Source: a virus
Virus record (IMG/VR): IMGVR_UViG_3300045988_099202
Coordinates: 1-13,840 of that record
DNA length: 13,840 bases
Direction: 5' to 3' (one strand)
Shown here piece by piece: positions 1 through 13,840 of the stretch. The notes beneath the pieces were generated by a model. The model had not been told where the DNA came from. It saw only the letters and a list, made by a program, of their open reading frames with translations, and did no database searches. The translations under genes and the position numbers were made by a program. The first letter of the stretch is position 1. Each line of letters begins with the position of its first letter.

Positions 1-246
1 GGGTATTCTGGTAATAAATTTACAATTGTCATTCCCCACAATCATGGCTTGTTACCTCTGTCAGCCGCTCATCAATCACATATAAGCATCATTCAATGTA
101 TAACGTCTGTTATATAACGCATTTCCAACTCAACCAAGAGTAGAAAAAATTTCTCCTCAAACTCAACTAACAGTATCTTCACAACATCGCCTGAATGTGC
201 TATCATATAAATGTAAAGAGGAAGGAAACCTCACAAACCAGAAGGG
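1..246. repeat. Left inverted terminal repeat (ITR-L)
   Basis: Checked base by base. Positions 1-199 are the exact reverse complement of 13642-13840. Identity continues to 246/13595 with two mismatches (left C200 and C204; the right copy has T at 13641 and 13637 read on the minus strand). The sequence begins GGGTATTCTGG. Confidence 0.97.
178..206 (+). promoter_or_regulatory. ITR-borne inward-facing early promoter (left copy)
   Basis: TTCACA (178-183), 17-nt spacer, TATCAT (201-206), with TG at 198-199 giving an extended -10 (TGcTATCAT). It is followed by the GAAGGGG SD (241-247) and ATG 252. Confidence 0.6.
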
Positions 247-251
247 GAATT

Positions 252-467
252 ATGATGACTGTGTATCTCGAACGCCGTGCTATTAACCAGCTGAACCGCG
301 ATAGCATCTACGACACTGCCCGCTATTTTATGGAGGAAGATTCTGTGGTCCGGCTCCGTCGTGAATACCTTGACACCACGGTTGCTTTATCGAATAAAAG
401 CAGTAGCAATCCGAACGGATGGGAACAGGTCGAAATCCGTGTAAAGGGGGCGAAGAAGAATGTCTGA
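252..467 (+). CDS. Hypothetical early protein (71 aa)
   Basis: ATG 252 lies 4 nt after the GAAGGGG SD at the ITR edge. The track ORF start at 195 lies inside the promoter. The stop overlaps the next start (ATGTCTGA). No recognisable motifs. Confidence 0.65.
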   Translation: MMTVYLERRAINQLNRDSIYDTARYFMEEDSVVRLRREYLDTTVALSNKSSSNPNGWEQVEIRVKGAKKNV

Positions 468-651
468 TTTCCGATTTCTGGCAGTCCAGCTTCTTCGGGC
501 GAAATCCTTAACAGAGATTTGCAACTTGACAAATCGAAATTATAAGGGCTACACGCTCGATGAACGTGAATGCCTGCTGATGCTTGCAAAGGCGGTAACT
601 CGAGAGATTATCGCAACGAGACAAGCCGAAAGGAAAGAACAGAATGTGTGA
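460..651 (+). CDS. Hypothetical early protein (63 aa), weakly helix-turn-helix-like
   Basis: ATG 460 is preceded by AAGGGGG (443-449) and overlaps the upstream gene by 8 nt. The segment KSLTEICNLTNRN is vaguely HTH-like. The function is not supported beyond that. Confidence 0.6.
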   Translation: MSDFRFLAVQLLRAKSLTEICNLTNRNYKGYTLDERECLLMLAKAVTREIIATRQAERKEQNV

Positions 652-706
652 GTTACTGGCGGGTGTGCTTGCTATATTATTAGTATGTTGGGGGTTGCAA
701 CAATGA
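644..706 (+). CDS. Hydrophobic micro-ORF, 20 aa (MCELLAGVLAILLVCWGLQQ), paralog of 13281-13337
   Basis: Not in the supplied ORF track; translated by hand. ATG 644 overlaps the upstream stop (ATGTGTGA), with the AGGAAAG SD at 631-637. Its TGA (704-706) overlaps the next ATG (703) as ATGA. A paralogous peptide sits in the other arm in the same context. Confidence 0.5.
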   Translation: MCELLAGVLAILLVCWGLQQ

Positions 707-912
707 TGAAACGAGTGAAATTAACCGGCAAGCAATTGGACGAATTATATAATAGAGGTTACACGTTCACGGCAAAAAGCTATTACTGGCAGTGTTATGG
801 CGGGAATTTAGCGAACCGGATTAGCAAAGCTGAGTATTTGAGCAGGGGCATTGCTGAGCCGCTCCGCGGAGTCGAACAAGTCCGAATCTACAAGAGGGAG
901 GAAGACAGATGA
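703..912 (+). CDS. Hypothetical early protein (69 aa)
   Basis: ATG 703 is preceded by GGGGG (690-694), in an ATGA overlap with the micro-ORF stop. The track start at 685 has no SD. The stop overlaps the next gene (ATGA at 909-912). Confidence 0.65.
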   Translation: MMKRVKLTGKQLDELYNRGYTFTAKSYYWQCYGGNLANRISKAEYLSRGIAEPLRGVEQVRIYKREEDR

Positions 913-1157
913 CTGCTAATTATGTGCTTATTCGGTACGATGCTAATGGAAGAGAAATCGAAAGGAACGACGAAAGAGGTGTCAAAAGGTTTGAATTTTA
1001 TTCGCTCACGTTCGCAATGAGGTCGATGGAAATTGCTACAAACATTTCTAACGGCACGCAGTGCGCAAAGCTCTATCGTCGCCGCCGTGCCGGTGGGTAT
1101 CGCTGGGTTGCAACTCGTTTTCGTGGGGGCGCGCATCTAACTGCATGGGGTGAATAA
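909..1157 (+). CDS. Hypothetical early protein (82 aa), basic C-terminal half
   Basis: ATG 909 is preceded by GGGAGGAAG. The Arg-rich stretch LYRRRRAGGYRWVATRFRGG suggests nucleic-acid binding, but this is unproven. The gene ends at the bidirectional terminator. Confidence 0.65.
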   Translation: MTANYVLIRYDANGREIERNDERGVKRFEFYSLTFAMRSMEIATNISNGTQCAKLYRRRRAGGYRWVATRFRGGAHLTAWGE

Positions 1158-1182
1158 AAGGGAGGGCAATGCCCTCCCTTTT
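1156..1182. terminator. Bidirectional rho-independent terminator between the convergent left early operon and the late operon
   Basis: AAAA-GGGAGGGC-AAT-GCCCTCCC-TTTT: a perfect 8-bp GC-rich stem (1160-1167 / 1171-1178) with a 3-nt loop, flanked by an A-run and a T-run. It lies between stop codons at 1155-1157 (+) and 1187-1189 (-). Confidence 0.88.
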
Positions 1183-1186
1183 ATTG

Positions 1187-2641
1187 TTACACACCAACCG
1201 CGATCCAGTCTACGGCGAACTGCTCATGCGTCGTTGTACCGGAAAGCCTGATTTTTGCCGAACTTGTAGTTTTAGCAAAAATCAGCTGACTGCGTGTTAC
1301 ACTATCTTGAATCGCCCCACTGTTTGCATAAGTTGCGACCACGGTCGGAATTTCGGTAAATCCCGCCGACTGATAATCAATAATGGTGTCTTGGTCTTGG
1401 TATGCGAGAACACTGCCTCTTGCAATTTTTGGCATATTCTGGAATTTGGCAATAGCTGTTTCCAACTCTGACAAACGGGAATTGATAGAAGCCTTGTCTG
1501 TGGGGTAGTCCGAAGTACCATTGATAGCGGAACGATTATTCCAGCTCCAATTATATGCAGGGTTGATTCTTAACGCCATTGGAACATTTTCCGACCAAAT
1601 ACCGATTGTATCCCAGAGGGTGTTATATTTCGATTCTGCAGGTCTCGTGCCGATTTTTTCCAGTGCAGAAGAAGCAGTAGAAGCAGCTGTTGTCGCGTTT
1701 GCCTTGGCAATAGCGGCATTATTGTCTGCCGTTTCTGCCTTGGTATATGCATCTTGCACGGCCGCCTCAACGTTACCCAATTCCGTTGCGAGCTGCCCAG
1801 TTTTTTCATCTACATATGATATCGATGCAAACTCTTCCCCGCCAGAACTGCCCGCCACAACTTCAAAAGTAAAAACGCGGACTACCATATTAAATGTTGT
1901 CGATTCTCCGGGGCAGTCTGCTACAACTACAAAATTATTATATTTATCTGTGGTTGTGCTTTTAGGAGGCTTAACAATCAAAAATGCGTTATTGCTATCT
2001 CCAGCTGTATGCGCAACAGATGATTCGCGTTCGCAGATCGCGAAATCAAACGGCGCAATTACTTTGGAGGGGGTGAATTCCTTCCCTCTTGCGGTTCCCG
2101 GGGCTATAGCAACTTGATATTCGCCATTAAGTTTTACAAGCGAACCGGGTTTCAGCGCCGCCTCGATCGTATTTAGGCGCGCCTGAATTGTGCCTTTAGT
2201 AAGATCATACGCGCCATCAGTTCCCGCGATAGAACGTTGATTTTCTTTGCCCACCGTCTGAACTTGAAGCAACTTACTGCCGATTGCCTGTGTAGCATTG
2301 TATTCGCCGATTGTGCTCCAAATGCTGCCGAAATTAGGAACAGAAGGTTTTACGCCAATATTTTTTTCAGTTTCCAACATTCGCCCATTCAGACCGCTAA
2401 TACTTGTCGTGTGCGCTGTAATCTGATTTTGGAGTTGTTTGTCTGCGGTTGTTCGCGCGGAACGTTCGCCGCTGATTTTTTCGTCAAGCGCAGCATCCTG
2501 TTCGTCCACATATTCTTTGCTTACATTGCCGCTCTTTTCCAGCGTATCAACTCTTCCATCAAGTTCTTTGATTGAATTATAAGCCCAATCAAGATTCTGT
2601 TCGTGGAAATTCGTAAACGGGAATTGTTCCCAAATACCCAT
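1187..2641 (-). CDS. Tail fiber / receptor-binding appendage protein (484 aa)
   Basis: ATG 2641 lies 9 nt after AGGAGGT (2657-2651); the track start at 2671 is a TTG without an SD. It is the last gene of the structural module, at the gp12 position of phi29. The N-terminus WEQFPFTNFHEQNLDWAYNSIKEL is followed by coiled-coil-like heptads and beta-rich C-terminal domains. Confidence 0.7.
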   Translation of the reverse strand: MGIWEQFPFTNFHEQNLDWAYNSIKELDGRVDTLEKSGNVSKEYVDEQDAALDEKISGERSARTTADKQLQNQITAHTTSISGLNGRMLETEKNIGVKPSVPNFGSIWSTIGEYNATQAIGSKLLQVQTVGKENQRSIAGTDGAYDLTKGTIQARLNTIEAALKPGSLVKLNGEYQVAIAPGTARGKEFTPSKVIAPFDFAICERESSVAHTAGDSNNAFLIVKPPKSTTTDKYNNFVVVADCPGESTTFNMVVRVFTFEVVAGSSGGEEFASISYVDEKTGQLATELGNVEAAVQDAYTKAETADNNAAIAKANATTAASTASSALEKIGTRPAESKYNTLWDTIGIWSENVPMALRINPAYNWSWNNRSAINGTSDYPTDKASINSRLSELETAIAKFQNMPKIARGSVLAYQDQDTIIDYQSAGFTEIPTVVATYANSGAIQDSVTRSQLIFAKTTSSAKIRLSGTTTHEQFAVDWIAVGV

Positions 2642-2658
2642 ATATTTTACACCTCCTG

Positions 2659-3231
2659 TTAATATACCCAAATTAAAAACCGCTTCTTAAAATCCAGAAT
2701 AACAGCATCATAGAAGTTGAACATTGCAACACGCCGTTCACTTTCCAGCATTTCTTGCGTAGTGGTTACACCGATGTTACCGTGCGCCCGCCCTGTTCGA
2801 GTTCCTGCGCTTGTGCCTGTCCCGGCACTATCGCTTGTATCCGCGCTTGTGCTTGCGCTGGTGCTTGCGCTATTGTCAGCCGGTTTTTGTAAATCGTTGT
2901 AACCGTAAACTTGTTCTTTTGTTGAGCCACTGGAAGTGTTGTTTGCGGAATTCGTATAGCGTGAAGTGTTTGTGGTGCTGTCCTCCCATTCTTCCATTCT
3001 GTCATAATTTTCTATTGGATTATATTCCGCCGTTAGTGTTTCGGCAAAGTGTTGCCAAGTATATTGCGAAATTTTTGACCATACCCGAATTAGCGATTTA
3101 AGTAAAGGCGGCGACGAATAAAGAACAGGCAATTCTCCGCACTGCATCAATAGCGTGTCGACGAAATCTTGCACCGATATATTAGAAGGAAATTCCACGC
3201 CGTCAAAGATGGAAGGATCGAAATTATACAT
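2659..3231 (-). CDS. Putative lower collar / head-tail adaptor protein (190 aa)
   Basis: ATG 3231 overlaps the portal stop (ATGTATAA). It sits directly after the portal, as phi29 gp11 does. It has an EYNPIENYD motif and a Ser/Thr/Ala/Gly low-complexity stretch (nt 2791-2880). It is shorter than gp11, so the call rests mostly on position. Confidence 0.5.
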   Translation of the reverse strand: MYNFDPSIFDGVEFPSNISVQDFVDTLLMQCGELPVLYSSPPLLKSLIRVWSKISQYTWQHFAETLTAEYNPIENYDRMEEWEDSTTNTSRYTNSANNTSSGSTKEQVYGYNDLQKPADNSASTSASTSADTSDSAGTGTSAGTRTGRAHGNIGVTTTQEMLESERRVAMFNFYDAVILDFKKRFLIWVY

Positions 3232-4150
3232 TGTCGCCAACATCACGCTCAATCTTATTACCTCCATTTGTGTTATGCTCAATCGGATAACGCCGCTCAC
3301 AAGTGATTCTCACACCGAACGCATTCCGAACGTTGCGGATGCAATCTTGAATGGTGTCGAACCACTGCGCAACGATTGCATCTGTTTCAACGTCGTTCCG
3401 TTCCGCTTCGGCTGTAATCAGCCGTTCTTTTTTGTCGGTGTTACAATTCGGAATCCCAACACGTGTATCAAATTCTGCTTCAATTTGCCTCATGTTGGAA
3501 AGTATTCTGTCCGCGATATAGTTTTGCCCTACATTTTGTGCGAATGGCGCCCACGAGGGGGAACCATCATCGTTAAAAAGGGCTTTATCCACCCATACAG
3601 CTAATTCGCCAGATGTTACCCTATCCATCAATTCTTTGCCAGTTTGTGCGGCATTTTTAGAACTGCACGCGAACACATAGGAAAGTTTAGAATTCATAAT
3701 GTTCATTGCAAGCGATTCAACACATGTTGCAAGCAAGTCCGCGTAATAATTAACAATGTCTAACGCGCCATGATAATCGCGTTGCAACCGGAAAAGAACG
3801 CAATCCTTATCAATTTGCAAGCGCATCGGTGGCAAAAGGGGATTTGAAATCATCACGGTTGTAGGCTGATAGAAAACATTGTATCCATACAATGCGCCCG
3901 CCTGCGGAATTACACCGTAACGCTTGCTGTTAAAAATCGCCACGCTTCCCCATGCGTACAAGCAGCCGAGAAAATATGTATCGCTCCAACCTTCGGGAAA
4001 GCTCCATTTGAATTGGCTTGTTAGTTTCTGGAATAAATAGCGCTGATAATATTGGAAAAGCGCTGTGTTTTTTGTGTGGCAGGTAGAAGGGGAAATGCTC
4101 GATTCGTAGGCATTTATGCGGTTGTAATCAAAGGGCGGATTGTTAGCCAT
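3224..4150 (-). CDS. Portal (upper collar / connector) protein, phi29 gp10-like (308 aa)
   Basis: ATG 4150 follows GAAGGTGA and overlaps the upstream stop (ATGGCTAA). The size matches gp10 (309 aa). The segment VGIPNCNTDKKERLITAEAERNDVE resembles the gp10 [24 protein letters not shown] region as I recall it. Confidence 0.8.
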   Translation of the reverse strand: MANNPPFDYNRINAYESSISPSTCHTKNTALFQYYQRYLFQKLTSQFKWSFPEGWSDTYFLGCLYAWGSVAIFNSKRYGVIPQAGALYGYNVFYQPTTVMISNPLLPPMRLQIDKDCVLFRLQRDYHGALDIVNYYADLLATCVESLAMNIMNSKLSYVFACSSKNAAQTGKELMDRVTSGELAVWVDKALFNDDGSPSWAPFAQNVGQNYIADRILSNMRQIEAEFDTRVGIPNCNTDKKERLITAEAERNDVETDAIVAQWFDTIQDCIRNVRNAFGVRITCERRYPIEHNTNGGNKIERDVGDNV

Positions 4151-5672
4151 TAGATTCACCTTCTTCAATGAAAAATCCAGATGATAAATATTGCAACAGC
4201 AAAGCGATTTCTGGCTGCGAAGCAAGAATCACATCAATATCGGGGTGCTGAATTGTGGTAAACCCTGTAAGCGTTGAAAGTTTTAGCTTCTTACAACATG
4301 GCGTTCCCAAATCTTCATTATCAGAATTTGCCACATGAGCAAACCTCCAAAAGATGTGCGGTTGCACATTATAGCTTGATAAATTGCCGTTGTGTCCCTG
4401 CACACTTAAAACGCCATTAGCGGCATGTGCCGCCGTGCCGATTCCCGCAAACGTTGTTTCGCCTGAACCAATACCGGCAAGCGCTCCCTTGAAAGTGTTA
4501 GTTTGCGTCATCCCAACTAGCGCTCCTGCTCCCGCGCCTAATATCGCAAGCGCTCCGCTTCCGCCAGTGCCGAGCGCTCCAGCATTCGCGCCGGCTGCCG
4601 CTGAACCAATAACGTTTGTAACGTCAGAGATTGCGCCGCCTATCCAACTCGTTTGCGCAAGCTGTATATCTACGCCAATTTGGCATTCTGCATAATACAA
4701 GAGATTATCACCGGATGATATAGTTATACTCCCAATTCCCGATACACAATCAACCCTAATTCCGATTCCAATAGATTCCTTTTGTAGTTTTGTTGGGTCT
4801 AATTGTATTACCCCAAACGGCGGATAATATAGGTAGTATGTAGAATATGGCGCGTATGCAAGCCATTTTCCACGCCCAATTTGAGGATGAACGCCAATAT
4901 TATTTACAGTTATTCCCTTCGTGATAACGCCATCAGCAGCAAGCAATGATGCAGTTCCGCCTGTAAAATCCCATCCACAAATTGTTATGGATGAAACAAC
5001 GCCCGACGTTGGCGGTTTTTCTGGAAACCATCGGCACGAAACTATATATTGAAAAGGATTTATAATCGCACGTTGCAATTCCGCCGAAATTTCACTGTCC
5101 GCGATTCCCATGTAAGAAAAATCTGTCAAAAGGGCATGACGCAATGAAGCGAACTGTGCATTAGACATCACATAATATGCAATACCACCTACTGAATTTG
5201 TGGCGTTGTTTACGATACCCAGAACATAATAGCCAGATGTAAGAGTTGGTAACCCCCATCCTGTAACATCCGCCCCCCCGCTTGTAATTTTAGAAGTCAC
5301 AGGGTAAAGGCTATCAACTATTGATAAATCGCCAGCGCTTGCAGAACGCAAAATATACTGTGTAGATTCTTTAAGAGTTTCCCAGTAAGTAGCAAGAACA
5401 TCGCATGAAAGTGTATAAATCACACGGTTTCGGTCGAACATCATGTCGGCGACAAAATAATAACGATGGAAATCTGGAATGTATGCGTAATTGTAAGCTG
5501 CCGGGGAAAGTTGATGATCCGGAAAAATTAGCGCAACTTGCGGCGCAAGAACGCTTGTTAAATCTTTGAGCGTGCATTCCGTCAAAAAAGATAGCTGCCC
5601 CTGTTCATTTTTGGTAGTTGGGCGCTTCGTTGAATTAATACGTTTACGAAACGCATACATTCGTATTTGCAT
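4143..5672 (-). CDS. Tail knob / distal tail tube protein, phi29 gp9-like (509 aa)
   Basis: ATG 5672 follows GGAGGTGA. It sits immediately upstream of the portal, as gp9 does. YYFVADMMF...CDVLATYW resembles gp9 WFYAFV...IDVLQTW. A long Gly/Ala-rich hydrophobic segment (aa 344-420) parallels the membrane-active loop of gp9. Confidence 0.65.
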   Translation of the reverse strand: MQIRMYAFRKRINSTKRPTTKNEQGQLSFLTECTLKDLTSVLAPQVALIFPDHQLSPAAYNYAYIPDFHRYYFVADMMFDRNRVIYTLSCDVLATYWETLKESTQYILRSASAGDLSIVDSLYPVTSKITSGGADVTGWGLPTLTSGYYVLGIVNNATNSVGGIAYYVMSNAQFASLRHALLTDFSYMGIADSEISAELQRAIINPFQYIVSCRWFPEKPPTSGVVSSITICGWDFTGGTASLLAADGVITKGITVNNIGVHPQIGRGKWLAYAPYSTYYLYYPPFGVIQLDPTKLQKESIGIGIRVDCVSGIGSITISSGDNLLYYAECQIGVDIQLAQTSWIGGAISDVTNVIGSAAAGANAGALGTGGSGALAILGAGAGALVGMTQTNTFKGALAGIGSGETTFAGIGTAAHAANGVLSVQGHNGNLSSYNVQPHIFWRFAHVANSDNEDLGTPCCKKLKLSTLTGFTTIQHPDIDVILASQPEIALLLQYLSSGFFIEEGESNG

Positions 5673-5678
5673 TTTGTA

Positions 5679-6422
5679 TCACCTCCATTTATTAGCCGCT
5701 TTGCAAATAAACCAGATAGGCAAGCTATTCAGATTGATTTTTTGTAATTTATTGTACCAGTAATTCGCCCACTGAATACGATATTTACTTGTTGCTTCCC
5801 AGTCCGTTATTGCAGGGCGTTCATAGCAGAGACAGAAACTTTTTGTCAACTGCTCAACATCTGTGCTATCGGAAAAGTAAAAATCTTGGAAATTGGGGTA
5901 GATTGTGCCGCCCTCCCACTGATAATTATGCTCCACCTCGTACATAATGCGCGCAATCTGAATGCTGCCGTTGTACCAACAATCAAGCCCAGCATATGCC
6001 CCATTTGTTCCAAATATTTCTAGAGCCCAATCTATATATTTATCTGCTCCTGTCCACTGAACAAGCCCAAAACCGTATTTCTTTTCGGTGTTCTGCTTGT
6101 AATTATTTGGGTCAGGGCTCGGGGCGTGCCCGCCCTGCCATAGGGCGGGATTAAGTGTAGATTCCCGGCACATATTCCCGAGCATTGCTGATATTTGGGG
6201 GACTTTCCATCCGTTTTTATACAGCCCAGTTGCAATCAATACCCCGTTTGTTTCGCTCGCTGTCTCGTGATCTTGATAGTCAAAATATGGATCATCGTAT
6301 ATACTATAATACCACTCCTGCGGCAACCGAAACGGCTTGTACCAATGGGGATAACGTGTTTCTGTGCTATCCACAGCAGGGACTATGTTACTACCTGGTA
6401 TCCTCTGTCTATCTCCCGCCAT
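5679..6422 (-). CDS. Virion-associated peptidoglycan hydrolase (phage tail lysozyme-type domain, gp13 analog) (247 aa)
   Basis: ATG 6422 lies 6 nt after AGGAGG; the track start at 6464 lacks an SD. The motifs MLGNMCRESTLNP and GFGLVQWTG match the G-N-x3-ES / G-x-x-QW signature of the phage tail lysozyme family. Confidence 0.6.
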   Translation of the reverse strand: MAGDRQRIPGSNIVPAVDSTETRYPHWYKPFRLPQEWYYSIYDDPYFDYQDHETASETNGVLIATGLYKNGWKVPQISAMLGNMCRESTLNPALWQGGHAPSPDPNNYKQNTEKKYGFGLVQWTGADKYIDWALEIFGTNGAYAGLDCWYNGSIQIARIMYEVEHNYQWEGGTIYPNFQDFYFSDSTDVEQLTKSFCLCYERPAITDWEATSKYRIQWANYWYNKLQKINLNSLPIWFICKAANKWR

Positions 6423-6495
6423 GTTGCACCTCCTGTATTTTCTGGTAAAGTTATTTACCAACACATTTGGAAAATCGCACAGAATCGTCTCAAAC

Positions 6496-6571
6496 GTAAT
6501 AGCCCTGTATTGCTATGTTATTAACTTGGGCGCCTTATAGGGCCTGTTTTGTGCGAATACAGGGCTATTAC
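6496..6571 (-). other. Long perfect inverted repeat (16-bp stem, 44-nt spacer) just downstream of the capsid gene; possible RNA stabiliser, partial terminator or processing site
   Basis: GTAATAGCCCTGTATT (6496-6511) pairs perfectly with AATACAGGGCTATTAC (6556-6571). It lies in the 156-bp gap between the capsid stop (6579) and the next start (6422). On the minus strand the stem is followed only by GUUUGAG, so it is not a canonical intrinsic terminator. Confidence 0.55.
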
Positions 6572-6578
6572 TATTAAG

Positions 6579-7768: not shown

Positions 7769-8101
7769 TCAGTTCGGGCGGATAATTTCCGACAAAACAT
7801 CCTCTGCAGTCAACGTCTTGCTATTGTCAACCTGTGCACTCTGCAAATTGCCCTTCTGCACAATGCCAGTAAGATTTGCAATTTGCTGGAAAACCTTGTT
7901 GAACTGCTCCTGCGTATTATCCGGCGCCGGTGCTGGTGCCGGTGCCGGTGCTGGTGCCGGTGCCGGTGCTGGCGCCGGTGCCGGTGCCGGTGCTGGTGCC
8001 GGTGCCGGTGCTGGCGCGGGTGCATCAATCTGCATCAGCTTTCCAATCTGTTCAGCGGTGAAGCCAGCTTTTGCCAGCGTCAAAATGTCGGATACATTCA
8101 T
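7769..8101 (-). CDS. Putative scaffolding protein with central (Ala-Pro)17 linker (110 aa)
   Basis: ATG 8101 overlaps the endolysin stop (TAATG), with a GGAGG 9 nt upstream. It is small, predicted helical at both ends, and sits immediately upstream of the capsid gene, like phi29 gp7 (98 aa). Confidence 0.55.
7922..8023 (-). repeat. In-frame 102-bp tandem repeat (6-bp unit GCN-CCN, 18-bp higher order) encoding 17 consecutive Ala-Pro dipeptides
   Basis: Counted codon by codon: 34 alternating Ala (GCA/GCG) and Pro (CCG/CCA/CCC) codons between two Asp codons (8026-8024 and 7921-7919). Confidence 0.95.
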
Positions 8102-8604
8102 TATTTGTTGCCTCCATATTTATTTACAAGTGTGACAAGTTCGCCGTATAGGTTAGAATATAGTTCGTTCGCATCCTGCACAGGAGTGCTGACAACCTCA
8201 GACGCATAGTATAGGCAATCGGCCTTCGCGTGGTGCGTCCACCGCCTCCGATTAGTAATTTTATCCATCTGAACGCCTCCCGTCGTAGAATGAATTACTT
8301 CACCGTTGCCGATGTAAATTCCAACATGAGCGGCATTCACACCATCGGTATAGCGCTTTGGTTCTTTGCCATCATGTTTGATAGTAAATACCCATTCGCC
8401 TACATCGATGTTATCAAAATTGTCAGATTTGTCATGGACTGCGCCGCGCCACATATCATTCGAGCCGCGCCAGTTCTTATTGATATTGGCATATTTTCTC
8501 AAACAGTGTTCGACAAACGCCTGACAATCAAGTGTGGCGTACGGGATACCGATTAGATTATTTTTATCTGCCCTGATTTTCCCCGCCCATTCTACAGCAA
8601 TCAA
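8101..8604 (-). CDS. Endolysin, NlpC/P60-family cysteine peptidase (167 aa)
   Basis: The catalytic-type motifs [11 protein letters not shown] (Cys) and [16 protein letters not shown] (His) are typical of NlpC/P60. The TTG start at 8604 overlaps the holin stop (TTGA). No obvious cell-wall-binding domain. Confidence 0.75.
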
Positions 8605-8795
8605 TTCCCATCACCGCCCAACCTATCAATGAGGTGCTGCATCACAATCGTATTATTATTGATTGCATCCTTTAATTCCGCCGTTTCTTCCCTGTGCTGC
8701 TCACGCTCCCTATTCCAAAAATAGAAAAGTGCGCAAGTACAAGCAATCGGAAACCCTACGTTTGTAATGAGCGTAATAATGTCGGAAACTTCCAT
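8601..8795 (-). CDS. Holin, BhlA/UviB-like (64 aa from Met47 of the track ORF)
   Basis: A single TM (VSDIITLITNVGFPIACTCALFYFW) is followed by the charged helix NREREQHREETAELKD, as in BhlA-type holins. GGGAGGG lies just upstream of ATG 8795. It sits immediately upstream of, and is coupled to, the endolysin gene. An alternative start is Met43 (8807). Confidence 0.65.
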   Translation of the reverse strand: MEVSDIITLITNVGFPIACTCALFYFWNREREQHREETAELKDAINNNTIVMQHLIDRLGGDGN

Positions 8796-8811
8796 ACACC
8801 CTCCCATCTCC

Positions 8812-8900: not shown

Positions 8901-8904
8901 AATC

Positions 8905-8933
8905 AATGTATCATAATTTTTAAATTTTGTCAA
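8905..8933 (-). promoter_or_regulatory. Near-consensus sigma-A/sigma-70 promoter upstream of the lysis and structural genes
   Basis: TTGACA (8933-8928, perfect -35), 17-nt spacer containing TG at 8913-8912 (extended -10, TGaTACATT), -10 TACATT (8910-8905). It starts 3 nt after the ATPase stop. The predicted TSS near 8899-8897 coincides with the 5' arm of the leader hairpin. Confidence 0.6.
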
Positions 8934-8936
8934 GAC

Positions 8937-9956
8937 TTATTTAACTATCCCGAAATATTGGCAGAAAACAATTTCGCAAGCCGGAGATTCGCAATAAATT
9001 TTTCGTTCAATATATGCCAGCATCAGATACCGATACAGCGTGCGGAATCGTAAACAATCATTTTCCGTAGTGCTGTATATCGGGCGCGTTCCTTGCCCGT
9101 GCGGGCTAATATAAAATGTTCGGTTGCTCTTGTGCCGATAAACTGTAATTTCTCCGCACGTTACGAGAGGCGTGTACTCTTTTAGGTTCGCGCTCATGGT
9201 TTGCAATACAGGTTTATCCAAAAAGCGATTTTCAAGCGACATATCTTTTATTTTATTATCCTTAAGAAGGCGATAAAGCGCCGTTTCTCCCTTCATGCGG
9301 CTTATGGGGCTATTGCGCAGGTTTATCAGATATAATCCGCGTTCGCCATCTTTATATTCCTGTGTTTCCTGCTCCGCCATTTTATATGCAATCGTGATAA
9401 GCCCTAAACTTTGAAAAATCGGGTTTACAATGCTGTTACTATTGGCAAGGCATAAACACTTCACAGGGGGCTTACCTTGCAGCTCTCTATTTCTGTTTAT
9501 TGTTTCATATGCATTAAAAAACGCATCCCCTTCATTTTTGATTCTGCGCTCATGCGATTCTGGAATAAATTCATCAAATATGATAATTTCAATATCATGC
9601 GCGGAAAAACCGCGAATATTTGATACGCCAGATAGTGCCAGTACATACCCGGCAGGGGTGCTTTCCTCGTTGATATACACAGCGGTTGCTTCTTTGGAAA
9701 CTTTATCCATTTCTAGAGACAAGGACATATCATCGCAAACGGGCGCAAAAGGTGACATTTCAGGCGCGCTAATAACATCCGCTTGTAGTTTCGTTCGTCT
9801 CATATAGATAAATTTCATTTTATGTTCAATCACATATTTAAGTGAACCGTAAGTTTTACCTGTACCTCTTGCACCCGTCATTAAAATAAATGGATATTTT
9901 TGTTCTATGATTCGCGCCATGTCAACATATCCATTTTTCAAAAATAGGTTATTCAT
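8937..9956 (-). CDS. DNA encapsidation (packaging) ATPase, phi29 gp16-like (339 aa)
   Basis: Walker A MTGARGTGKTY, FIYMRR, Walker B IIIFDEFI, CLCLANSNSIVNPIF and MSLENRFL parallel gp16 GARGIGKSY, FIYVRRY, VFDEFI, CICLSNAVSVVNPYF and MSLDNQFI (recalled). ATG 9956 follows GGAGGGG. The alternative ATG 9968 lies in the terminator U-tract and has no SD. Confidence 0.88.
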   Translation of the reverse strand: MNNLFLKNGYVDMARIIEQKYPFILMTGARGTGKTYGSLKYVIEHKMKFIYMRRTKLQADVISAPEMSPFAPVCDDMSLSLEMDKVSKEATAVYINEESTPAGYVLALSGVSNIRGFSAHDIEIIIFDEFIPESHERRIKNEGDAFFNAYETINRNRELQGKPPVKCLCLANSNSIVNPIFQSLGLITIAYKMAEQETQEYKDGERGLYLINLRNSPISRMKGETALYRLLKDNKIKDMSLENRFLDKPVLQTMSANLKEYTPLVTCGEITVYRHKSNRTFYISPHGQGTRPIYSTTENDCLRFRTLYRYLMLAYIERKIYCESPACEIVFCQYFGIVK

Positions 9957-9965
9957 GCTCCCCTC

Positions 9966-9998
9966 CATAAAATAAAGGCAGGGTTCTTCGCCCTGCCT
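9966..9998 (-). terminator. Rho-independent terminator at the end of the right early (replication) operon
   Basis: On the minus-strand RNA: AGGCAGGG-CGAAGAA-CCCUGCCU (stem 9998-9991 / 9983-9976), followed by UUAUUUUAU. It starts 10 nt after the stop of the 116-aa gene. There is no T-run on the plus-strand side, so it is unidirectional. Confidence 0.8.
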
Positions 9999-10007
9999 CT
10001 GACAGCA

Positions 10008-10358
10008 TCAATCGAAAATCAATTCGCACGATGTGTAGTTGCGGTTGTTTTTGCTCCGAATCTGTGTAATCATAATCTTGAAGCCTACATCGTCCATACC
10101 CGCCGTGCCCAGATAATCAACAATGGCAAGAAGCCGTTCGCTGAACGCTCTCCCATTCGTGATATATGGCACGCCATCTATGATAATCCCGCAACGCGGC
10201 TTAAACTCGCCGTTACCATCAACTGTTTCAGTCACCGCCCAAGCGTCAACGCGAACTGTTTTCAACATCAACTCCGACATCGTATGCCCTTCGCGGGAAA
10301 GCGTCAGCTTGTACAGTTCCGCCGGGGAAATGCTCTGATTAGTCTTCGTGTTACTCAT
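10008..10358 (-). CDS. Early protein, putative phi29 p5-like single-stranded DNA-binding protein (116 aa)
   Basis: ATG 10358 lies 7 nt after AGGAGGG, directly downstream of the polymerase. Its size is close to p5 (124 aa). The pattern IIIDGVPYI...SERLLAIVDYL...FKIMITQIRSKNNRNYTSCEL loosely parallels p5 AADGSLYS...ASDLIDLV...FKVKVVQGTSSKGNVFFSLQL as I recall it. Confidence 0.4.
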   Translation of the reverse strand: MSNTKTNQSISPAELYKLTLSREGHTMSELMLKTVRVDAWAVTETVDGNGEFKPRCGIIIDGVPYITNGRAFSERLLAIVDYLGTAGMDDVGFKIMITQIRSKNNRNYTSCELIFD

Positions 10359-10389
10359 GAGAAAGCCCTCCTAAATATTTGTTCGGCGG

Positions 10390-12408
10390 TTATCGCCTAA
10401 TAAGATTATAGCACAAATTACGGTCAGCGTCAACACTTATATAAGTGTTCTGCAACGCTTCGAGTAAGTCCGCGTATTTGTAAGTAATTCCCACAGCATA
10501 GGTTGAAGGGCGCAAGCATACATTTCTGGTTATTGGTAACTCGTGTCCATCAACGCTAATTGTCTTGGATACATAGTCATTATAAACACTTTCAAGCCCT
10601 CCCGCTTTTCGGAAAACAAAACCGGGCACAATTTTTACGAGTCCCCCTGCTTCTTCCAGTTCATCAGCGCCGCCCCACTCCACAATATCACCCGCAGCGT
10701 TTTTGCTGGAATTTTTGCGTACCCCCGCGATAGTTATGTTTATATGCCCCTGTTCATCCTGTGACGCATATTTTTTCGCCCCCCATGTTAAAAACTGATA
10801 ATATTCACCCTCTGTTTCTGCCACGCCCATATAATGCACGGTTCCATGGGGGTCTACGGCACACGCTCCATGAGCAAGGGATGCTGTTTTGCATCTGTTA
10901 TTATATGATTCATAACTAATTGATTCTGATTTTATATATTTACAGCTATCCGTATCGGCATAAACAAAATTATTTCCTGCAATCTTTATCATTTCTTCCA
11001 ACTCAAGTCTTGCGTACGCAGTAACCCATACGCCCCATTGATACGGCAGAAATGATTTTTTGATATTTTTAATAACGTCCGTTTCCTGCTGAATGTATTT
11101 GTTGCCGTCGAATATAATATCATCTTTTCCGGGGTCTGTGGCTGTCATGCCGTACAAGCTATTTAACAAATTCTTGCTTTTCATGTATTCATATTCACTC
11201 CCGGCGATTCCTTTAAGCGAAGTTTTGTTTGTATAATAGCGTTTTATACAATCCGTAAAAGGTTTTGGTAAATAGTCCTTCTCTGCCGTGTATATGTCTG
11301 TAAAATCAAATTCGCCATCATATTCTTCGAGAATTATCTGCATATCTACTTCTGTTACTTCAATCGTCAGCGCATCCGCTTCAAGCACACGTCCGTTATC
11401 TTCCACAGGATTTATAAGCATTTGGCATTTGCTAACAGGTATATAAGGGCAACCCCACAACGGATTGCGCAGGGTAGCGCCTGTTATGCTCATCGTACAA
11501 AGAATTGCAAGCCCGGATGAAAACGCCCTCCTAACAGTTGCTATTCCATCAGGGCATTTCTTGAATGGTTTCATAGGAAACTTCTTATTTATCATAACAT
11601 CAGGATAGCTTGACGATCGATCGACCGATTGCACACCCGATAATACCTTCCCGACGAAATAGCGGTTCGCGTGCGTGTTCCCGCCTCGAAACGCCTTGCG
11701 AAGTTTTCTGTAAATTTCTTCTGTGGGTTTAAGCGCTCCAAGTGGTGTTTGGCTTAACGCTTGTTTTGCATCCCGGCGCACGTAGCCAGTAAAGGTGCGC
11801 GGAACTGTATAGAGAGTGTCGCCATCTTGCGAAATCTTCTTTTCGGCGGCTTCAAGTAGCCCGATAACGTCATTTTGACAATATTCAATTTCATCTTCTG
11901 AAAGTTCTGTCCACGGATAACGGACTTTAGAATAGTCGAATTCAGCGCCTGACTTCTTCACGTGCTGGACATTCATTTCCTTCAGAAACTTTGAAAGCGT
12001 TTTATTTGTCCAAATATAGGAACAGCGATATTCAATACATCCGCAAGTTGCGGACAGTATTTTCCGGGCTTTAAGGCACTTAACATCACTAAATTCATAA
12101 ATCCCTGCGAGAAATTGGAACTCATACGAAAGATTGTGAACCAGACAGATTATTGTAATTCCGCCAAGATGCGCATTTAAGGCTTCCTGCAATGCTGTCC
12201 ACTCTTCCCACGTTCTCCCGTATGTGATGTAGTATTCCCCGCAAACATAAAGTCCGCACTGCCAGATGTACATTATAGCATTATCGTCTTCGAGCCTCGT
12301 TGTTTCAATGTCAAAAGCCATAAGCGCGTCGGCGTATACGATTTTAGCCCGTGGATTATCAGGCGTTAACGCCGTTATTTTTTGGATCCCATCATATACG
12401 CTGAACAC
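10390..12408 (-). CDS. Protein-primed family-B DNA polymerase (672 aa)
   Basis: Exo I AFDIETT, Exo II HNLSYEFQF, Exo III YCQNDV, motif A VDRSSSYP, motif B KNLLNSLYG, motif C YADTDS and the KxY motif GAKKYA are all present in canonical order. The GTG start at 12408 lies 2 nt after the terminal protein stop. Confidence 0.95.
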   Translation of the reverse strand: MFSVYDGIQKITALTPDNPRAKIVYADALMAFDIETTRLEDDNAIMYIWQCGLYVCGEYYITYGRTWEEWTALQEALNAHLGGITIICLVHNLSYEFQFLAGIYEFSDVKCLKARKILSATCGCIEYRCSYIWTNKTLSKFLKEMNVQHVKKSGAEFDYSKVRYPWTELSEDEIEYCQNDVIGLLEAAEKKISQDGDTLYTVPRTFTGYVRRDAKQALSQTPLGALKPTEEIYRKLRKAFRGGNTHANRYFVGKVLSGVQSVDRSSSYPDVMINKKFPMKPFKKCPDGIATVRRAFSSGLAILCTMSITGATLRNPLWGCPYIPVSKCQMLINPVEDNGRVLEADALTIEVTEVDMQIILEEYDGEFDFTDIYTAEKDYLPKPFTDCIKRYYTNKTSLKGIAGSEYEYMKSKNLLNSLYGMTATDPGKDDIIFDGNKYIQQETDVIKNIKKSFLPYQWGVWVTAYARLELEEMIKIAGNNFVYADTDSCKYIKSESISYESYNNRCKTASLAHGACAVDPHGTVHYMGVAETEGEYYQFLTWGAKKYASQDEQGHINITIAGVRKNSSKNAAGDIVEWGGADELEEAGGLVKIVPGFVFRKAGGLESVYNDYVSKTISVDGHELPITRNVCLRPSTYAVGITYKYADLLEALQNTYISVDADRNLCYNLIRR

Positions 12409-12410
12409 TC

Positions 12411-13112
12411 CTAAATCTTCCCTTCTCTTTTTGCTTTTTCAAACATTGCGCGAACGGTCGAACCGCTCACAAATTCCCCGGCTTTAAGCCGTTCTTTATA
12501 TCGCGCCCGTGCTTTGTCGGCTTGACGCTCCCAATAGTTCCACCTCTTTAACAAGTCCTCCCAGTCCGATTTTGCAAATTTTCGCTTAACGCTGGTAGTT
12601 CCTTCCTGCGATACATCAAGAATATCTTGCAAAATATAATAGTATTGCGCTTCTTTATTCGCATCAGCGTAAACCGCGAAAAATTTTCGAAATTGCAGAA
12701 AGTCCTCATAGGTGAATGTTTCTTCAGTAAACCATCCACGATGTAAAAGTGTTTCATACTCGCGTTTCCACTGGTTTTGTTGTGTATCAAATAACTGTTG
12801 TGGTGTTTTTGTTCCGCTAACAACTTTCCACATGGCGCGAATCTGCCGGACGCCTTCATCCACCGTCCGCACGGTGGAGGGTTTATCCCAATAATGGCGC
12901 TCATACTGTTTAATGCTTTCGTACTCAATGCCCTTCTTCTTTGCCGCCTTAAAGCGCTTATCCATTAGGTCAATTAACGACTTCATCTCTTTTTTAACAT
13001 CTTTTAGCGTCAAACCGGCTTTAGGAATTTTTGTACCTACATATACAGCCTTTGGAAGGGGGCGATTTTCAAGTGCCGTACTTTGCGCGAATCGTTTATT
13101 CCATCGTGCCAT
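12411..13112 (-). CDS. Putative terminal protein (replication primer) (233 aa)
   Basis: It sits immediately upstream of the polymerase and nearly abuts it, as in phi29 gene 3-gene 2. The size is similar to phi29 TP (266 aa). It is highly charged and basic, and starts MARWNKR (phi29 TP starts MARSPR). A Ser/Thr cluster (VSGSTV) near the C-terminus is a candidate priming site. No rigorous homology was established. Confidence 0.55.
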   Translation of the reverse strand: MARWNKRFAQSTALENRPLPKAVYVGTKIPKAGLTLKDVKKEMKSLIDLMDKRFKAAKKKGIEYESIKQYERHYWDKPSTVRTVDEGVRQIRAMWKVVSGTKTPQQLFDTQQNQWKREYETLLHRGWFTEETFTYEDFLQFRKFFAVYADANKEAQYYYILQDILDVSQEGTTSVKRKFAKSDWEDLLKRWNYWERQADKARARYKERLKAGEFVSGSTVRAMFEKAKREGKI

Positions 13113-13284
13113 TCTTTATAAGCCCCCTTCTCAACAACTCATTATAGACGGTTTTAATACAGAGCCGAGCTGTTTTTGATAGATTGTCCATTCTCGTAAT
13201 GTCGCAAATTTCTTTTAGTCGCTTCAAATCTTCGGGATACATGGATAGCGTTATCACTTTATATTGGCGCTTTCTATTGTTCAT
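13096..13284 (-). CDS. Putative ribbon-helix-helix (CopG/Arc-like) transcriptional regulator (62 aa)
   Basis: ATG 13284 is preceded by GGGGG and is in an ATGA overlap with the micro-ORF stop. YKVITLSMYPEDLKRLKEICDITRMDNLSKTARLCIKTVYNELL fits a beta-strand, helix, loop, helix RHH pattern. Its 3' end overlaps the TP start by 17 nt. Confidence 0.5.
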   Translation of the reverse strand: MNNRKRQYKVITLSMYPEDLKRLKEICDITRMDNLSKTARLCIKTVYNELLRRGLIKNGTME

Positions 13285-13337
13285 TGTTGCAACCCCCATG
13301 TAACAAGGATTATAAGCATGACTGCCGTTAGCAACAT
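13281..13337 (-). CDS. Hydrophobic micro-ORF, 18 aa (MLLTAVMLIILVTWGLQQ), paralog of 644-706
   Basis: Not in the supplied track; translated by hand. The GGAGG SD (13352-13348) lies 10 nt upstream of ATG 13337. Its TGA (13283-13281) overlaps the ATG of the RHH gene (ATGA). Confidence 0.5.
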   Translation of the reverse strand: MLLTAVMLIILVTWGLQQ

Positions 13338-13354
13338 TTGGTTTTCGCCTCCAG

Positions 13355-13585
13355 TTATTGTCTCCAAACGTAACGTGTTAAATTGCAATAACGGGCAAGC
13401 GGTTCAACTCGTTCGTAGCCAATAATTATGCCGCGGTCGATCTGAACCTTGAACGGAAAAACATTTACCTCCGAGCCGTCATAAAGACTTGCAATTCCGT
13501 AAATGATTCTGCCACCCTCAACATAGTAGCGGAAACCGTCATGGGTGACGTGCCAACCTTCGCGAGTGATAATTGATTTATTCAT
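13355..13585 (-). CDS. Hypothetical early protein (76 aa), first gene of the right early operon
   Basis: ATG 13585 lies 9 nt after the GAAGGG that ends the ITR; the track start at 13591 is a TTG. The composition is beta-rich, with no recognisable motifs. Confidence 0.65.
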   Translation of the reverse strand: MNKSIITREGWHVTHDGFRYYVEGGRIIYGIASLYDGSEVNVFPFKVQIDRGIIIGYERVEPLARYCNLTRYVWRQ

Positions 13586-13594
13586 GTGCAACTT

Positions 13595-13840
13595 CCCTTC
13601 TGGTTTGTGAGGTTTCCTTCCTCTTTACATTTATATAATAACACATTCAGGCGATGTTGTGAAGATACTGTTAGTTGAGTTTGAGGAGAAATTTTTTCTA
13701 CTCTTGGTTGAGTTGGAAATGCGTTATATAACAGACGTTATACATTGAATGATGCTTATATGTGATTGATGAGCGGCTGACAGAGGTAACAAGCCATGAT
13801 TGTGGGGAATGACAATTGTAAATTTATTACCAGAATACCC
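13595..13840. repeat. Right inverted terminal repeat (ITR-R)
   Basis: Reverse complement of 1-246 (244/246 identical). Similarity ends right after the shared GAAGGG ribosome-binding motif. Confidence 0.97.
13635..13663 (-). promoter_or_regulatory. ITR-borne inward-facing early promoter (right copy)
   Basis: Mirror copy on the minus strand: TTCACA (13663-13658), 17-nt spacer, extended -10 TGtTATTAT (13643-13635). The two ITR mismatches both fall in this element and bring the -10 closer to TATAAT than in the left copy. Confidence 0.6.

Follow-up and report, generated by a model that had tools for sequence, protein, structure and literature searches.

An uncultured phi29-type podophage of the human gut with what is very likely a complete linear genome of 13,840 bp

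The whole stretch of DNA analyzed here (the window, 13,840 bp) is very likely the complete linear genome of a virulent, as yet uncultured podophage of the phi29 type from the human gut. It is linear dsDNA of 44.5% G+C with 19 genes and 92% coding content, and it is almost certainly replicated by protein priming. An earlier note on this DNA had read it as a whole phi29-type genome bounded by inverted terminal repeats (ITRs), and this reading was borne out by repeat arms at both window edges and by a gene set confirmed in the main by homology.

The ITR arms start precisely at the outermost bases of the window (1 and 13840), positions 1-251 being the reverse complement of 13590-13840. The match between them is perfect over 199 nt, includes 2 mismatches over 246 nt, and reaches 251 nt with 4 mismatches (positions 200, 204, 247, and 249). 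The ITR lies far above chance; the runner-up among the inverted repeats of the window covers 30 nt at 70%. The following features were located in the two arms.

1-251, plus strand: left ITR (self-comparison, relatives)
1-3: terminal GGG of the left ITR; GGG starts the genome at both ends
90-124: invariant block of the left ITR, including the ATAACGTCTGTTAT palindrome and TATAACG in two copies
178-206: inward promoter-like site of the left ITR, TTCACA-17-TG-n-TATCAT
241-246: Shine-Dalgarno sequence (GAAGGG) of the first gene, within the left ITR
13590-13840, minus strand: right ITR (self-comparison)
13663-13635: inward promoter-like site of the right ITR, TTCACA-17-TG-n-TATTAT

Among the related contigs, the two arms of each genome are identical or nearly so, whereas the ITR sequence varies between genomes. 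Relatives begin with either GGG or AAA, the latter in the more distant ones, as in phi29. The ITR folds no better than shuffled sequence on either strand. Its length had been called unusual, a description that did not hold: ITRs span 52-413 nt in 11 related full-length contigs and 226-260 nt in members of the same genus, and that of Cp-1 is 236.

The replication genes lie on the minus strand, near the right end of the window.

12411-13112, minus strand: candidate terminal protein (TP), 233 aa, all-alpha (position directly upstream of the polymerase)
10390-12408, minus strand: protein-primed family B DNA polymerase (Pol), 672 aa (PF03175, 8.7e-16)
10008-10358, minus strand: single-stranded DNA-binding protein (SSB), phi29 gp5-like, 116 aa (hhalign 98.9%, 1.6e-17)
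9974-10000, minus strand: intrinsic terminator-like hairpin, 3' of the SSB gene

When the family profile of Pol was compared with PDB entries, the sole match was phi29 Pol (1XHX/2EX3, 1.5e-16, phi29 residues 138-466). At 10433-10405, the SSB gene is preceded by a near-consensus promoter-like site of its own, and the replication block closes with the hairpin behind this gene. The terminal protein is probably the 233-aa product encoded immediately ahead of the polymerase; this slot holds an ORF of 165-312 aa in 85 of 87 loci. The candidate shows no detectable sequence similarity to the TPs of phi29 or Cp-1, no PDB match by sequence or profile, and no fold match in PDB or BFVD, its AF2 model being of moderate quality (pLDDT 70).

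The genes for packaging, lysis, capsid, and tail follow on the same strand downstream of the SSB gene, in the order listed.

8937-9956, minus strand: DNA packaging ATPase, phi29 gp16-like, 339 aa (PF05894 Podovirus_Gp16, 3.6e-19)
8601-8795, minus strand: candidate holin, 64 aa (phrog_4898, 0.0077, weak; position ahead of the lysin)
8101-8604, minus strand: NlpC/P60 peptidoglycan endopeptidase, 167 aa (PF00877, 8.6e-8)
7769-8101, minus strand: candidate scaffold, 110 aa (position ahead of the capsid gene only)
6579-7754, minus strand: major capsid protein (MCP), phi29 type, 391 aa (PF25622 Phi29_MCP, 4.1e-19)
6465-6578, minus strand: non-coding spacer, 3' of the capsid gene
5679-6422, minus strand: tail-associated lysozyme, phi29 gp13-like, 247 aa (PF18013, 1.7e-24; hhalign 99.9%)
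4143-5672, minus strand: tail knob, phi29 gp9-like, 509 aa (weak profile match, synteny)
3224-4150, minus strand: portal or upper collar connector, phi29 gp10-like, 308 aa (PF05352, 2.1e-17)
2659-3252, minus strand: lower collar, phi29 gp11-like, about 197 aa (197/213; hhalign)
1187-2641, minus strand: candidate tail fibre or appendage, 484 aa (by position, following the lower collar)

The ATPase and portal also match phrog_2150 (3e-39) and phrog_2038 (1.7e-32), respectively, and the lengths first proposed for them (339 and 308 aa) agree with Shine-Dalgarno-bearing starts and with an independent gene call. The family alignment of the lower collar matches phi29 gp11 over 181 columns (hhalign 99.9%, 4.6e-33). 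For the knob, the single PDB match of the family profile is phi29 gp9 (5FB4), at a marginal E-value of 6.9e-4 and in two collinear stretches, one of which is a Gly/Ala-rich loop; hhalign gives 34% against gp9, yet gp9 ranks first among 25 phi29 proteins. The knob gene lies directly upstream of the portal gene, as in phi29, and genus members carry several diverged knob alleles. The NlpC/P60 protein is the probable endolysin; the candidate holin ahead of it has one hydrophobic segment, and its stop codon overlaps the lysin start. The candidate scaffold contains a Pro-Ala repeat linker (a 34-residue run), and the candidate fibre has no detectable homologue outside the genus. The spacer behind the capsid gene folds into a very stable long hairpin (z = -5.4), and this spacer differs among relatives. 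No Rfam match to a pRNA was found in the window even at E up to 1; this RNA has been documented in Bacillus phages alone (PMC11476376). Thus, the phi29-type gene set previously proposed for the window is upheld by homology for Pol, SSB, ATPase, capsid, portal, lower collar, tail lysozyme, and NlpC/P60 lysin. The knob is a weak case, the holin combines a weak PHROG match with position, and TP, scaffold, and fibre, which no similarity confirms, are placed by position only.

Small ORFs occupy both ends of the window.

252-467, plus strand: left-end early ORF, 71 aa (gene calls; differs among genus members)
460-651, plus strand: left-end early ORF, 63 aa (gene calls)
703-912, plus strand: left-end early ORF, 69 aa (gene calls)
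909-1157, plus strand: left-end early ORF, 82 aa (gene calls)
1153-1185, no strand assigned: perfect 16-bp hairpin, where the left operon and the long minus-strand gene array converge
13096-13284, minus strand: small conserved early ORF, 62 aa (found in 33 loci)
13355-13585, minus strand: first right-end early ORF, 76 aa (gene calls)

The 71-aa product had no family match in profile searches. The hairpin at 1153-1185, which gives weak terminator-like Rfam alignments, is probably a bidirectional terminator. Upstream of many genes there is a Shine-Dalgarno sequence of the GGAGG type, and the promoter-like sites of the ITR and the SSB gene have a TGn extended -10 element; these signals had been taken to suggest a Firmicutes host, and a Bacillota host is indeed plausible.

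By analogy with phi29, Cp-1, and PRD1, a TP would be covalently linked to each 5' end of this genome. The phi29-type PolB would begin on TP at both ends, opposite the template 3'-CCC, with dGMP priming and a sliding-back step that the GGG reiteration could make possible. The genome would then be copied by strand displacement, the gp5-like SSB covering the displaced strand. In this scheme each 250-bp ITR would be a composite of terminal origin, invariant palindromic block, inward extended -10 promoter, and a first-gene 5' leader with its Shine-Dalgarno sequence. Since the promoter lies inside both ITR arms, the same promoter would drive two early operons, one made up of the four small left-end ORFs on the plus strand and the other of the right-end replication block (76-aa and 62-aa ORFs, TP, and Pol), which the SSB gene adjoins. 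We infer the functions of the small ORFs and of the invariant ITR block, as well as the early or late timing; no convincing late promoter was found in the window. The gp16-type ATPase is predicted to package unit-length DNA through the gp10-type portal.

The termini of the window are very likely real. Palindromic ends can be produced by metagenome assemblers, and a study of faecal phage contigs cautions that ITRs can be artefacts and that vOTUs may combine DTR with ITR contigs (PMC9610469). That the ITR is such an artefact (a fold-back or chimeric palindrome), or that the genome is circular or terminally redundant with arbitrary contig ends, is nonetheless highly unlikely. At least two of the four positions at which the arms differ recur in an independent ENA assembly, and separately assembled, diverged relatives share the same end: GGGTATTC is the start common to the window and the independent contigs L169 (both ends), L173, and L176, whose ITRs are only ∼85% identical to that of the window. 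In another relative, L179, a TruSeq adapter is joined directly to the terminal GGG at both ends. In addition, the ITR promoter, leader, and Shine-Dalgarno sequence run into different genes at each end, and the encoded phi29-type PolB fits linear protein-primed replication. Some of the same observations bear on whether the contig is only nearly complete, with some bases absent beyond its current ends, which we consider very unlikely. Symmetric shortness is possible, as shown by an ENA contig that is exactly 80 nt short at each end but otherwise identical, and the assemblies of relatives are not perfectly consistent at the termini, L176 having 13 additional bases past the common terminus at one end. 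However, the first base is the same at both ends of the window and of L169 and at a single end of L173 and of L176, the L179 adapter adjoins the GGG with nothing between, and the window ends in a homopolymer triplet, which is what sliding-back replication requires and which the GGG would provide.

We also considered whether this complete linear element could be a linear plasmid, a phage-plasmid, or a satellite and not an autonomous virulent phage. Phage-plasmids do exist among phi29-related sequences, certain of which carry partition and toxin-antitoxin genes (PMC11476376). For the window this origin is extremely unlikely, as profile searches matched none of the 19 proteins to partition, toxin-antitoxin, or integrase families, PLSDB contained no plasmid match, and a full set of structural, packaging, and lysis genes is present. 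The genome was never found inside a longer contig; the longest contig bearing the window's proteins is ∼14.06 kb (90%-identity protein clusters, 38-235 members).

At the genus level, taken as genome-wide nucleotide similarity of 70% or more, the window forms a cluster with at least eight IMG/VR contigs (3300045988 contigs, for example IMGVR_UViG_3300045988_106820, _080360, and _080637) that have the same gene order. Blastn identity multiplied by coverage is 82-84% for the best three (L002, L008, and L006) and at least 70% for eight or nine contigs. Their Pol, TP, ATPase, MCP, and portal proteins are 89-98% identical to those of the window, and their ITRs of 226-260 nt start with GGGTATTC. All of these IMG/VR relatives are less than 95% similar to the window and so represent different species-level variants, in which the left-end ORFs, holin, and 509-aa knob occur as diverged alleles (∼35% versus 95%). 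Outside IMG/VR, the ENA contig ERZ27256449:k119_96944 matches the window at 99.99% identity across 13,371 nt, apart from the 80 nt missing at each end, and a GenBank fragment has 81% nucleotide identity. The lineage is probably MCP cluster 25 of the survey by Evseev et al. 2024 (PMC11476376).

No close cultured or ICTV-classified phage was found (identity at most about 34% for Pol and at most 27% for the capsid protein). The proposal of a new lineage therefore stands relative to cultured and classified phages but not relative to public catalogues, where more than 10 IMG/VR contigs of the cluster, the ENA contig, and the GenBank fragment were already present. The earlier note had named a near-identical, already classified genome as a challenge to its reading; that ENA contig is near-identical, but no classified phage is close. 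Phages of this kind are already common in public catalogues. The size range of 16-27 kb that had been given for the genomes of described phi29-like phages no longer applies, since cultured relatives have genomes of 10.4-12.3 kb: Vibrio K58 g2 (10,390 bp), Pectobacterium DU_PP_III (11,504 bp), Salmonella astrithr (11,569 bp), and Amedibacillus AD70P2 (12,320 bp). A genome of 13.8 kb is small, but it sets no record. The Evseev et al. survey includes 2115 phi29-related GenBank entries of 7.9-34.6 kb (PMC11476376).

As the earlier note had anticipated, the Pol, ATPase, portal, and capsid proteins match phi29-type families. The hallmark set of phi29-related phages is p2, p16, p8, p9, p10, and p11 (PMC11476376), and by sequence comparison the window encodes counterparts of p2, p16, p8, p10, and p11, with p9 marginal. 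The closest cultured phages are AD70P2 (NCBI label Guelinviridae) and Clostridium phage HM2 (17,470 bp), which like the window have small linear phi29-type genomes; their Pol and MCP are 33-34% and 27% identical to those of the window, and there is no nucleotide similarity. AD70P2, the closest isolate by MCP (27%; Pol 33%), corresponds to ∼8 of the 19 window proteins at the profile level and has the same single-strand order of TP slot, Pol, ATPase (after intervening genes), MCP, knob, portal, collar, and fibre. Its host is a Bacillota from gut or sewage, and its G+C content is 26.7% (PMC11476376), compared with 44.5% in the window. Guelinviridae phages of C. perfringens are absent among the Pol matches listed and among all MCP matches.

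Streptococcus phage Cp-1 (19,343 bp) resembles the window in its long ITR (236 bp), in a TP gene (230 aa) that immediately precedes the PolB gene, and in annotated early transcription starts that face inward near both ends, although these lie in unique sequence and the window promoter lies within the ITR. Cp-1 is 5.5 kb larger, its ATPase and portal are 24 and 19% identical to those of the window (tblastn), and its Pol gave no tblastn match to the window Pol. Bacillus phage phi29 (19,282 bp) shares p2 Pol, p5 SSB, p16 ATPase, p8 MCP, p9 knob (a weak match), p10 portal, p11 lower collar, and p13 lysozyme, the knob-portal-collar-appendage order, and a terminal homopolymer triplet. Identities to phi29 are 23-35% where measurable; with tblastn, Pol is at 23% and ATPase at 29%, and MCP is undetected. 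Unlike the window, phi29 has a 6-bp ITR and divergent early and late strands, and its pRNA, p4/p6 regulators, and head fibres were not found in the window. Two Salasmaviridae traits were looked for in the window and not found, a pRNA gene near a genome end and close protein kinship to phi29 or Cp-1. Salmonella phage astrithr and Vibrio phage K58 g2 share the hallmark genes, and their genomes are even smaller than the window; their Pol is 31-36% and their MCP 22-24% identical, and they differ in having the portal before MCP and a Gram-negative host type.

A repeat search of the window returned inverted-repeat arms at 1–251 and 13590–13840 with 98% complementarity. When the arms were compared base by base, 199 nt were perfectly matched, mismatches were found at positions 200, 204, 247, and 249, and no likeness extended past 251; the ITR of 199 perfect and 246 total nt claimed in the earlier note is therefore exact. 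The arms begin at the very first and last bases of the window.

The termini were judged from independent assemblies of relatives. By analysis of IMG/VR, we identified 13 contigs whose polymerase is 88–94% identical to that of the window, and full-length copies of relatives were retrieved via the capsid gene. The ITRs of these relatives have diverged from that of the window (∼79–88% identity over the alignable part). The sequence GGGTATTC is the shared start of the window, of related contig L169 (both ends), and of related contigs L173 and L176 (one end each), and two other relatives, L175 and L170, begin 3 and 4 bases further inside, respectively. The exact terminal 30-mer of the window had 0 matches in IMG/VR. 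Within the genus, ITRs are 226–260 nt long, and the two arms of any one genome are 96–100% identical while differing between genomes. Arms that are alike within a genome and unlike between genomes are what concerted evolution of functional terminal repeats predicts; assembler palindromes would not be expected to behave in this way.

Both ends of the sister phage L179 (L179:1–27 and the far end) carry an Illumina TruSeq adapter (GAGTTCAGACGTGTGCTCTTCCGATCT) joined straight to a terminal GGG, a sign that the library DNA physically ended there. A Nextera adapter (…TCGTCGGCAGCGTCAGATGTGTATAAGAGACAG) is present at both ends of another related contig (L017:1–50 and the far end); the adapters on these two contigs are database contamination and inflate their apparent ITR length. 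Remoter relatives start with AAA (AAAGTTAC, AAATTAGC, and similar), a terminus that phi29 shares.

The proteins of the window are present in a 15-billion-protein collection (cluster members from JGI, ENA, and Logan). The 90%-identity clusters of the window proteins had 38–235 members, the longest contig for any of them was ∼14.06 kb, and the element was never found within a larger replicon among the contigs carrying these clusters. A plasmid identity was ruled out, as there was no PLSDB match. One ENA contig (ERZ27256449:k119_96944, 13,680 bp) is 99.99% identical to the window, with 1 mismatch in 13,371 nt; it reproduces ITR mismatches, and both of its ends stop exactly 80 nt short. The ITR probably accounts for this symmetric loss, given a k = 119 assembly graph. 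Based on the shared termini, the concordance of the arms, the L179 adapter, the ∼14.06-kb ceiling, and the lack of a plasmid match, we conclude that the window comprises an entire linear genome. The earlier proposal of an entire ITR-bounded genome of the phi29 type was thus correct, and protein priming is almost certain.

Alignment of the window ITR with those of five relatives defined four parts: a conserved terminus (about 1–35), a variable stretch, an invariant block, and a conserved segment running from promoter to ribosome site.

ITR elements, operons, and expression signals of the window (coordinates, strand, feature).
90–124: invariant ITR block, palindrome ATAACGTCTGTTAT and two TATAACG copies
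178–206: left inward extended −10 promoter-like site, TTCACA-17-TG-n-TATCAT (consensus scan)
252–1157, + strand: left operon, four small ORFs
1153–1185: perfect 16-bp hairpin closing the left operon
10000–9974, − strand: terminator-like hairpin 3′ of the SSB gene
10433–10405, − strand: SSB-gene promoter-like site, TTGACG-17-TG-n-TATAAT, near-consensus (11/12 positions)
13663–13635: right inward extended −10 promoter-like site, TTCACA-17-TG-n-TATTAT (consensus scan)
− strand: right operon, 76-aa ORF, 62-aa ORF, candidate TP, polymerase

The inner ITR mismatches at 200 and 204 (versus 13641 and 13637) lie in and just ahead of the −10 hexamer, which is TATCAT on the left and TATTAT on the right. 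Because every relative has TATTAT, the left promoter of the window genome may be the weaker one. GAAGGG closes the ITR and is followed by ATG after 5 bases on the left (252) and after 9 on the right (13585). A single cassette of promoter, leader, and Shine-Dalgarno sequence, present in two copies, would therefore control the operons at the two ends. Genes for packaging, lysis, and structure come after the SSB gene on the same strand, and GGAGG-like Shine-Dalgarno sequences precede many genes. The putative roles of the promoter-like and terminator-like sites are taken from their consensus matches.

A 16-nt string, GGGGGTTGCAACAATG, comprising ribosome-binding site, spacer, and start codon, occurs at 690–705 (+) and 13297–13282 (−), where it precedes the 69-aa ORF of the left end and the 62-aa ORF of the right end. 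The left-end ORFs (252–1157, +) have no homologues beyond the genus and form the most variable part of the genome; among genus members, the four are 40–97% identical or absent, the kind of variability that early genes for host takeover or anti-defence typically show. The spacer that follows the capsid gene (6465–6578) forms a long hairpin of very high stability (−54 kcal/mol over 168 nt, z = −5.4) that no shuffled sequence equalled. Several close relatives have no alignable counterpart of this region, which may act as a transcription attenuator or an RNA-stability element.

The window has 44.5% G+C, 19 probable genes, and 92% coding density, and no tRNA genes were found in it. Curated profiles recognized six of its proteins.

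Proteins of the window matched by curated profiles (profile, E-value).
Family B polymerase, protein-primed clade: PF03175, 8.7e-16
gp16 ATPase: PF05894, 3.6e-19
Capsid protein Phi29_MCP: PF25622, 4.1e-19
Tail lysozyme: PF18013, 1.7e-24
NlpC/P60: PF00877, 8.6e-8
gp10 connector: PF05352, 2.1e-17

As a lone sequence, the window polymerase had no match in the PDB; when a profile of 20 related polymerases was used, the sole match was phi29 DNA polymerase (1XHX/2EX3, 1.5e-16). For the unassigned ORFs, family alignments were built by iterated HMM search from the ORFs of 87 related loci, and each was compared by hhalign with all phi29 proteins. This analysis identified the 116-aa protein as a gp5-type SSB (98.9%, 1.6e-17), the 197/213-aa protein as the gp11 lower collar (99.9%, 4.6e-33), and the 247-aa protein as gp13-like (99.9%). 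The hhalign probability of the 509-aa protein against gp9 was 34% only, yet gp9 ranked top of 25 phi29 proteins and was the lone match of the 509-aa profile in the whole PDB (5FB4, E 6.9e-4). The match consists of two collinear stretches, one of which is the Gly/Ala-rich loop of gp9, and the 509-aa gene lies directly upstream of the portal gene, the same place as in phi29.

This knob gene (4143–5672, −) has diverged alleles in the genus, with ∼95% identity to three relatives, ∼35% to six, and 56–60% to two. The flanking lysozyme and portal genes are 88–97% identical throughout, and the knob gene resembles a hot spot of recombination that may be linked to host range.

Three further candidates were named from their place in the gene order or from a weak match. 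These are a scaffold of 110 aa with a Pro-Ala repeat ahead of the capsid gene, a fibre of 484 aa after the lower collar, and a holin of 64 aa with one hydrophobic segment, which overlaps the lysin start and has a weak PHROG holin hit (E 0.0077). The small ORFs, fibre, and scaffold found nothing meaningful in Pfam, PHROGs, or NCBIfam, and matches of the scaffold candidate were rejected as Pro/Ala low-complexity noise. The Pro-Ala dipeptide repeat is encoded by a 6-nt tandem array (7905–8036, −). Its longest run is 34 residues in the window and 12–54 in four relatives, and it is absent from nine; the linker length of the candidate is therefore hypervariable. The phi29-type gene set listed in the earlier note is thus borne out by homology for the polymerase, SSB, ATPase, capsid, lysozyme, portal, collar, and NlpC/P60 proteins and weakly for the knob; TP, scaffold, and fibre are placed by position, and the holin by position and its weak match.

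The candidate TP is a 233-aa ORF that stops 2 bases short of the polymerase start. In 85 of the 87 related loci, phi29 and Cp-1 among them (266 and 230 aa), an ORF of 165–312 aa fills this pre-polymerase slot. The large database contains 43 clusters of the 233-aa family, every member being on contigs of ≤14.05 kb, and the AF2 model of the protein shows helices only, at moderate confidence (pLDDT 70). Invariant Tyr residues at 24, 70, 119, 148, and 158 are candidates for the residue that would be linked to the DNA. TPs diverge fast. By hhalign, the family scored <1% against the phi29 and Cp-1 TPs, and its best comparison with a 69-member TP-slot family of remoter relatives was collinear and not significant (P 0.0026). 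The protein had no PDB match by phmmer or profile search, and Foldseek of the model against PDB and BFVD gave nothing below E 0.28. Based on synteny, the phi29-type polymerase, and the ITRs, this ORF very likely encodes the TP, an assignment made by position.

By analogy with phi29, Cp-1, and PRD1, replication would initiate at both ends, primed by TP opposite 3′-CCC, and the GGG reiteration would permit sliding-back. The polymerase would then replicate by strand displacement, with the displaced DNA coated by the gp5-type SSB, and unit-length TP-DNA would be packaged through the gp10-type portal by the gp16-type ATPase. The Gly/Ala-rich loop of the knob and the gp13-like lysozyme would serve cell-wall and membrane penetration, and lysis would be brought about by the holin and the NlpC/P60 endopeptidase. 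An Rfam E-value scan of the window returned nothing relevant to pRNA, and the ITR folded as RNA on both strands had no significant structure (z about −1); pRNA is documented for Bacillus phages only (PMC11476376).

The genome is not exceptionally small, as had been claimed for it, since a polymerase search of GenBank phages returned smaller cultured ones; human-faecal "Bacteriophage sp." records of 12.4–15.7 kb came from the same search.

Cultured phi29-type phages smaller than the window.
Vibrio K58 g2: 10,390 bp
Pectobacterium DU_PP_III: 11,504 bp
Salmonella astrithr: 11,569 bp
Enterobacter Entb_47: 11,593 bp
Acinetobacter Phanie: 11,885 bp
Amedibacillus AD70P2: 12,320 bp

The smallest tailed phages isolated, according to Luque et al. 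(PMC7762592), are astrithr (11.6 kb) and Mycoplasma P1 (11.7 kb). The supposed unusual length of the ITR does not hold either, as the ITRs of related contigs span 52–413 nt and that of Cp-1 is 236.

In GenBank, the closest nucleotide match (81%) is to a faecal fragment of 4 kb. Eight or nine IMG/VR contigs have identity × coverage of ≥70% with the window, the top three at 82–84%, and core proteins are 89–98% identical between the window and these genus relatives. By the usual 70% rule, they belong to the genus of the window but to a different species. L179 and a further contig, L180, form the sister group of the window cluster (polymerase 69%, TP 50%). Among the closest cultured phages are Clostridium phage HM2 (polymerase 34%) and Amedibacillus AD70P2 (polymerase 33%, MCP 27%), which NCBI labels Guelinviridae; phi29 itself has 23% identity in the polymerase and 29% in the ATPase. 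Evseev et al. (2024) sorted 2115 phi29-related GenBank sequences of 7.9–34.6 kb into 30 capsid clusters, and the representative of cluster 25, Caudoviricetes sp. ct2Eo1, is a 13,822-bp human metagenome sequence with 45.1% G+C and a suggested Bacillota host (PMC11476376). Likened by this published description, cluster 25 is very probably the clade of the window. The lineage is new in being absent among cultured and classified phages, but it is already well sampled in public metagenome catalogues.

A tentative and rather doubtful reading is that the cluster, together with its sister group, is a phi29-like lineage at family level that infects uncultured gut Clostridia, with a TP unrelated to characterised TPs, dGMP priming on 3′-CCC, pRNA-free packaging, and a 250-bp ITR serving as both origin and early-promoter cassette, so that both ends would fire the same early programme. 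If true, 13.8 kb would sit in the size range that Luque et al. give for T = 3 capsids, an architecture not yet observed in tailed phages (PMC7762592). Current understanding is not overturned, as the group, the size range, and long ITRs are all documented already. Among the smallest tailed phages, the window provides an uncultured human-gut branch with a clean end-to-end reference whose termini are base-exact, and it helps define the minimal tailed-virion gene set (here 19 genes, with ∼8 phi29 hallmarks). Such phages are also a source of new polymerase/TP pairs with protein priming, for use in orthogonal replication systems, and of candidates for small capsids, possibly T = 3.

The relatives in GenBank come from sources that indicate a human-gut habitat. 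The host is plausibly a member of the Bacillota, given the strong use of Shine-Dalgarno sequences, the extended −10 promoters, an NlpC/P60 lysin, and nearest isolates that infect Clostridium and Amedibacillus. When the lysin was compared with contigs of 185,579 species genomes, only distant matches of 23–36% over many phyla were obtained. One of these matches is on a distant phi29-like phage genome (JAZUJA010000107.1, 12,421 bp), which matches the local polymerase (7.5e-153) and MCP (1.1e-72) profiles and was assigned to an Acutalibacteraceae MAG; it is either phage DNA contaminating that MAG or a host pointer, the only such hint and a weak one.
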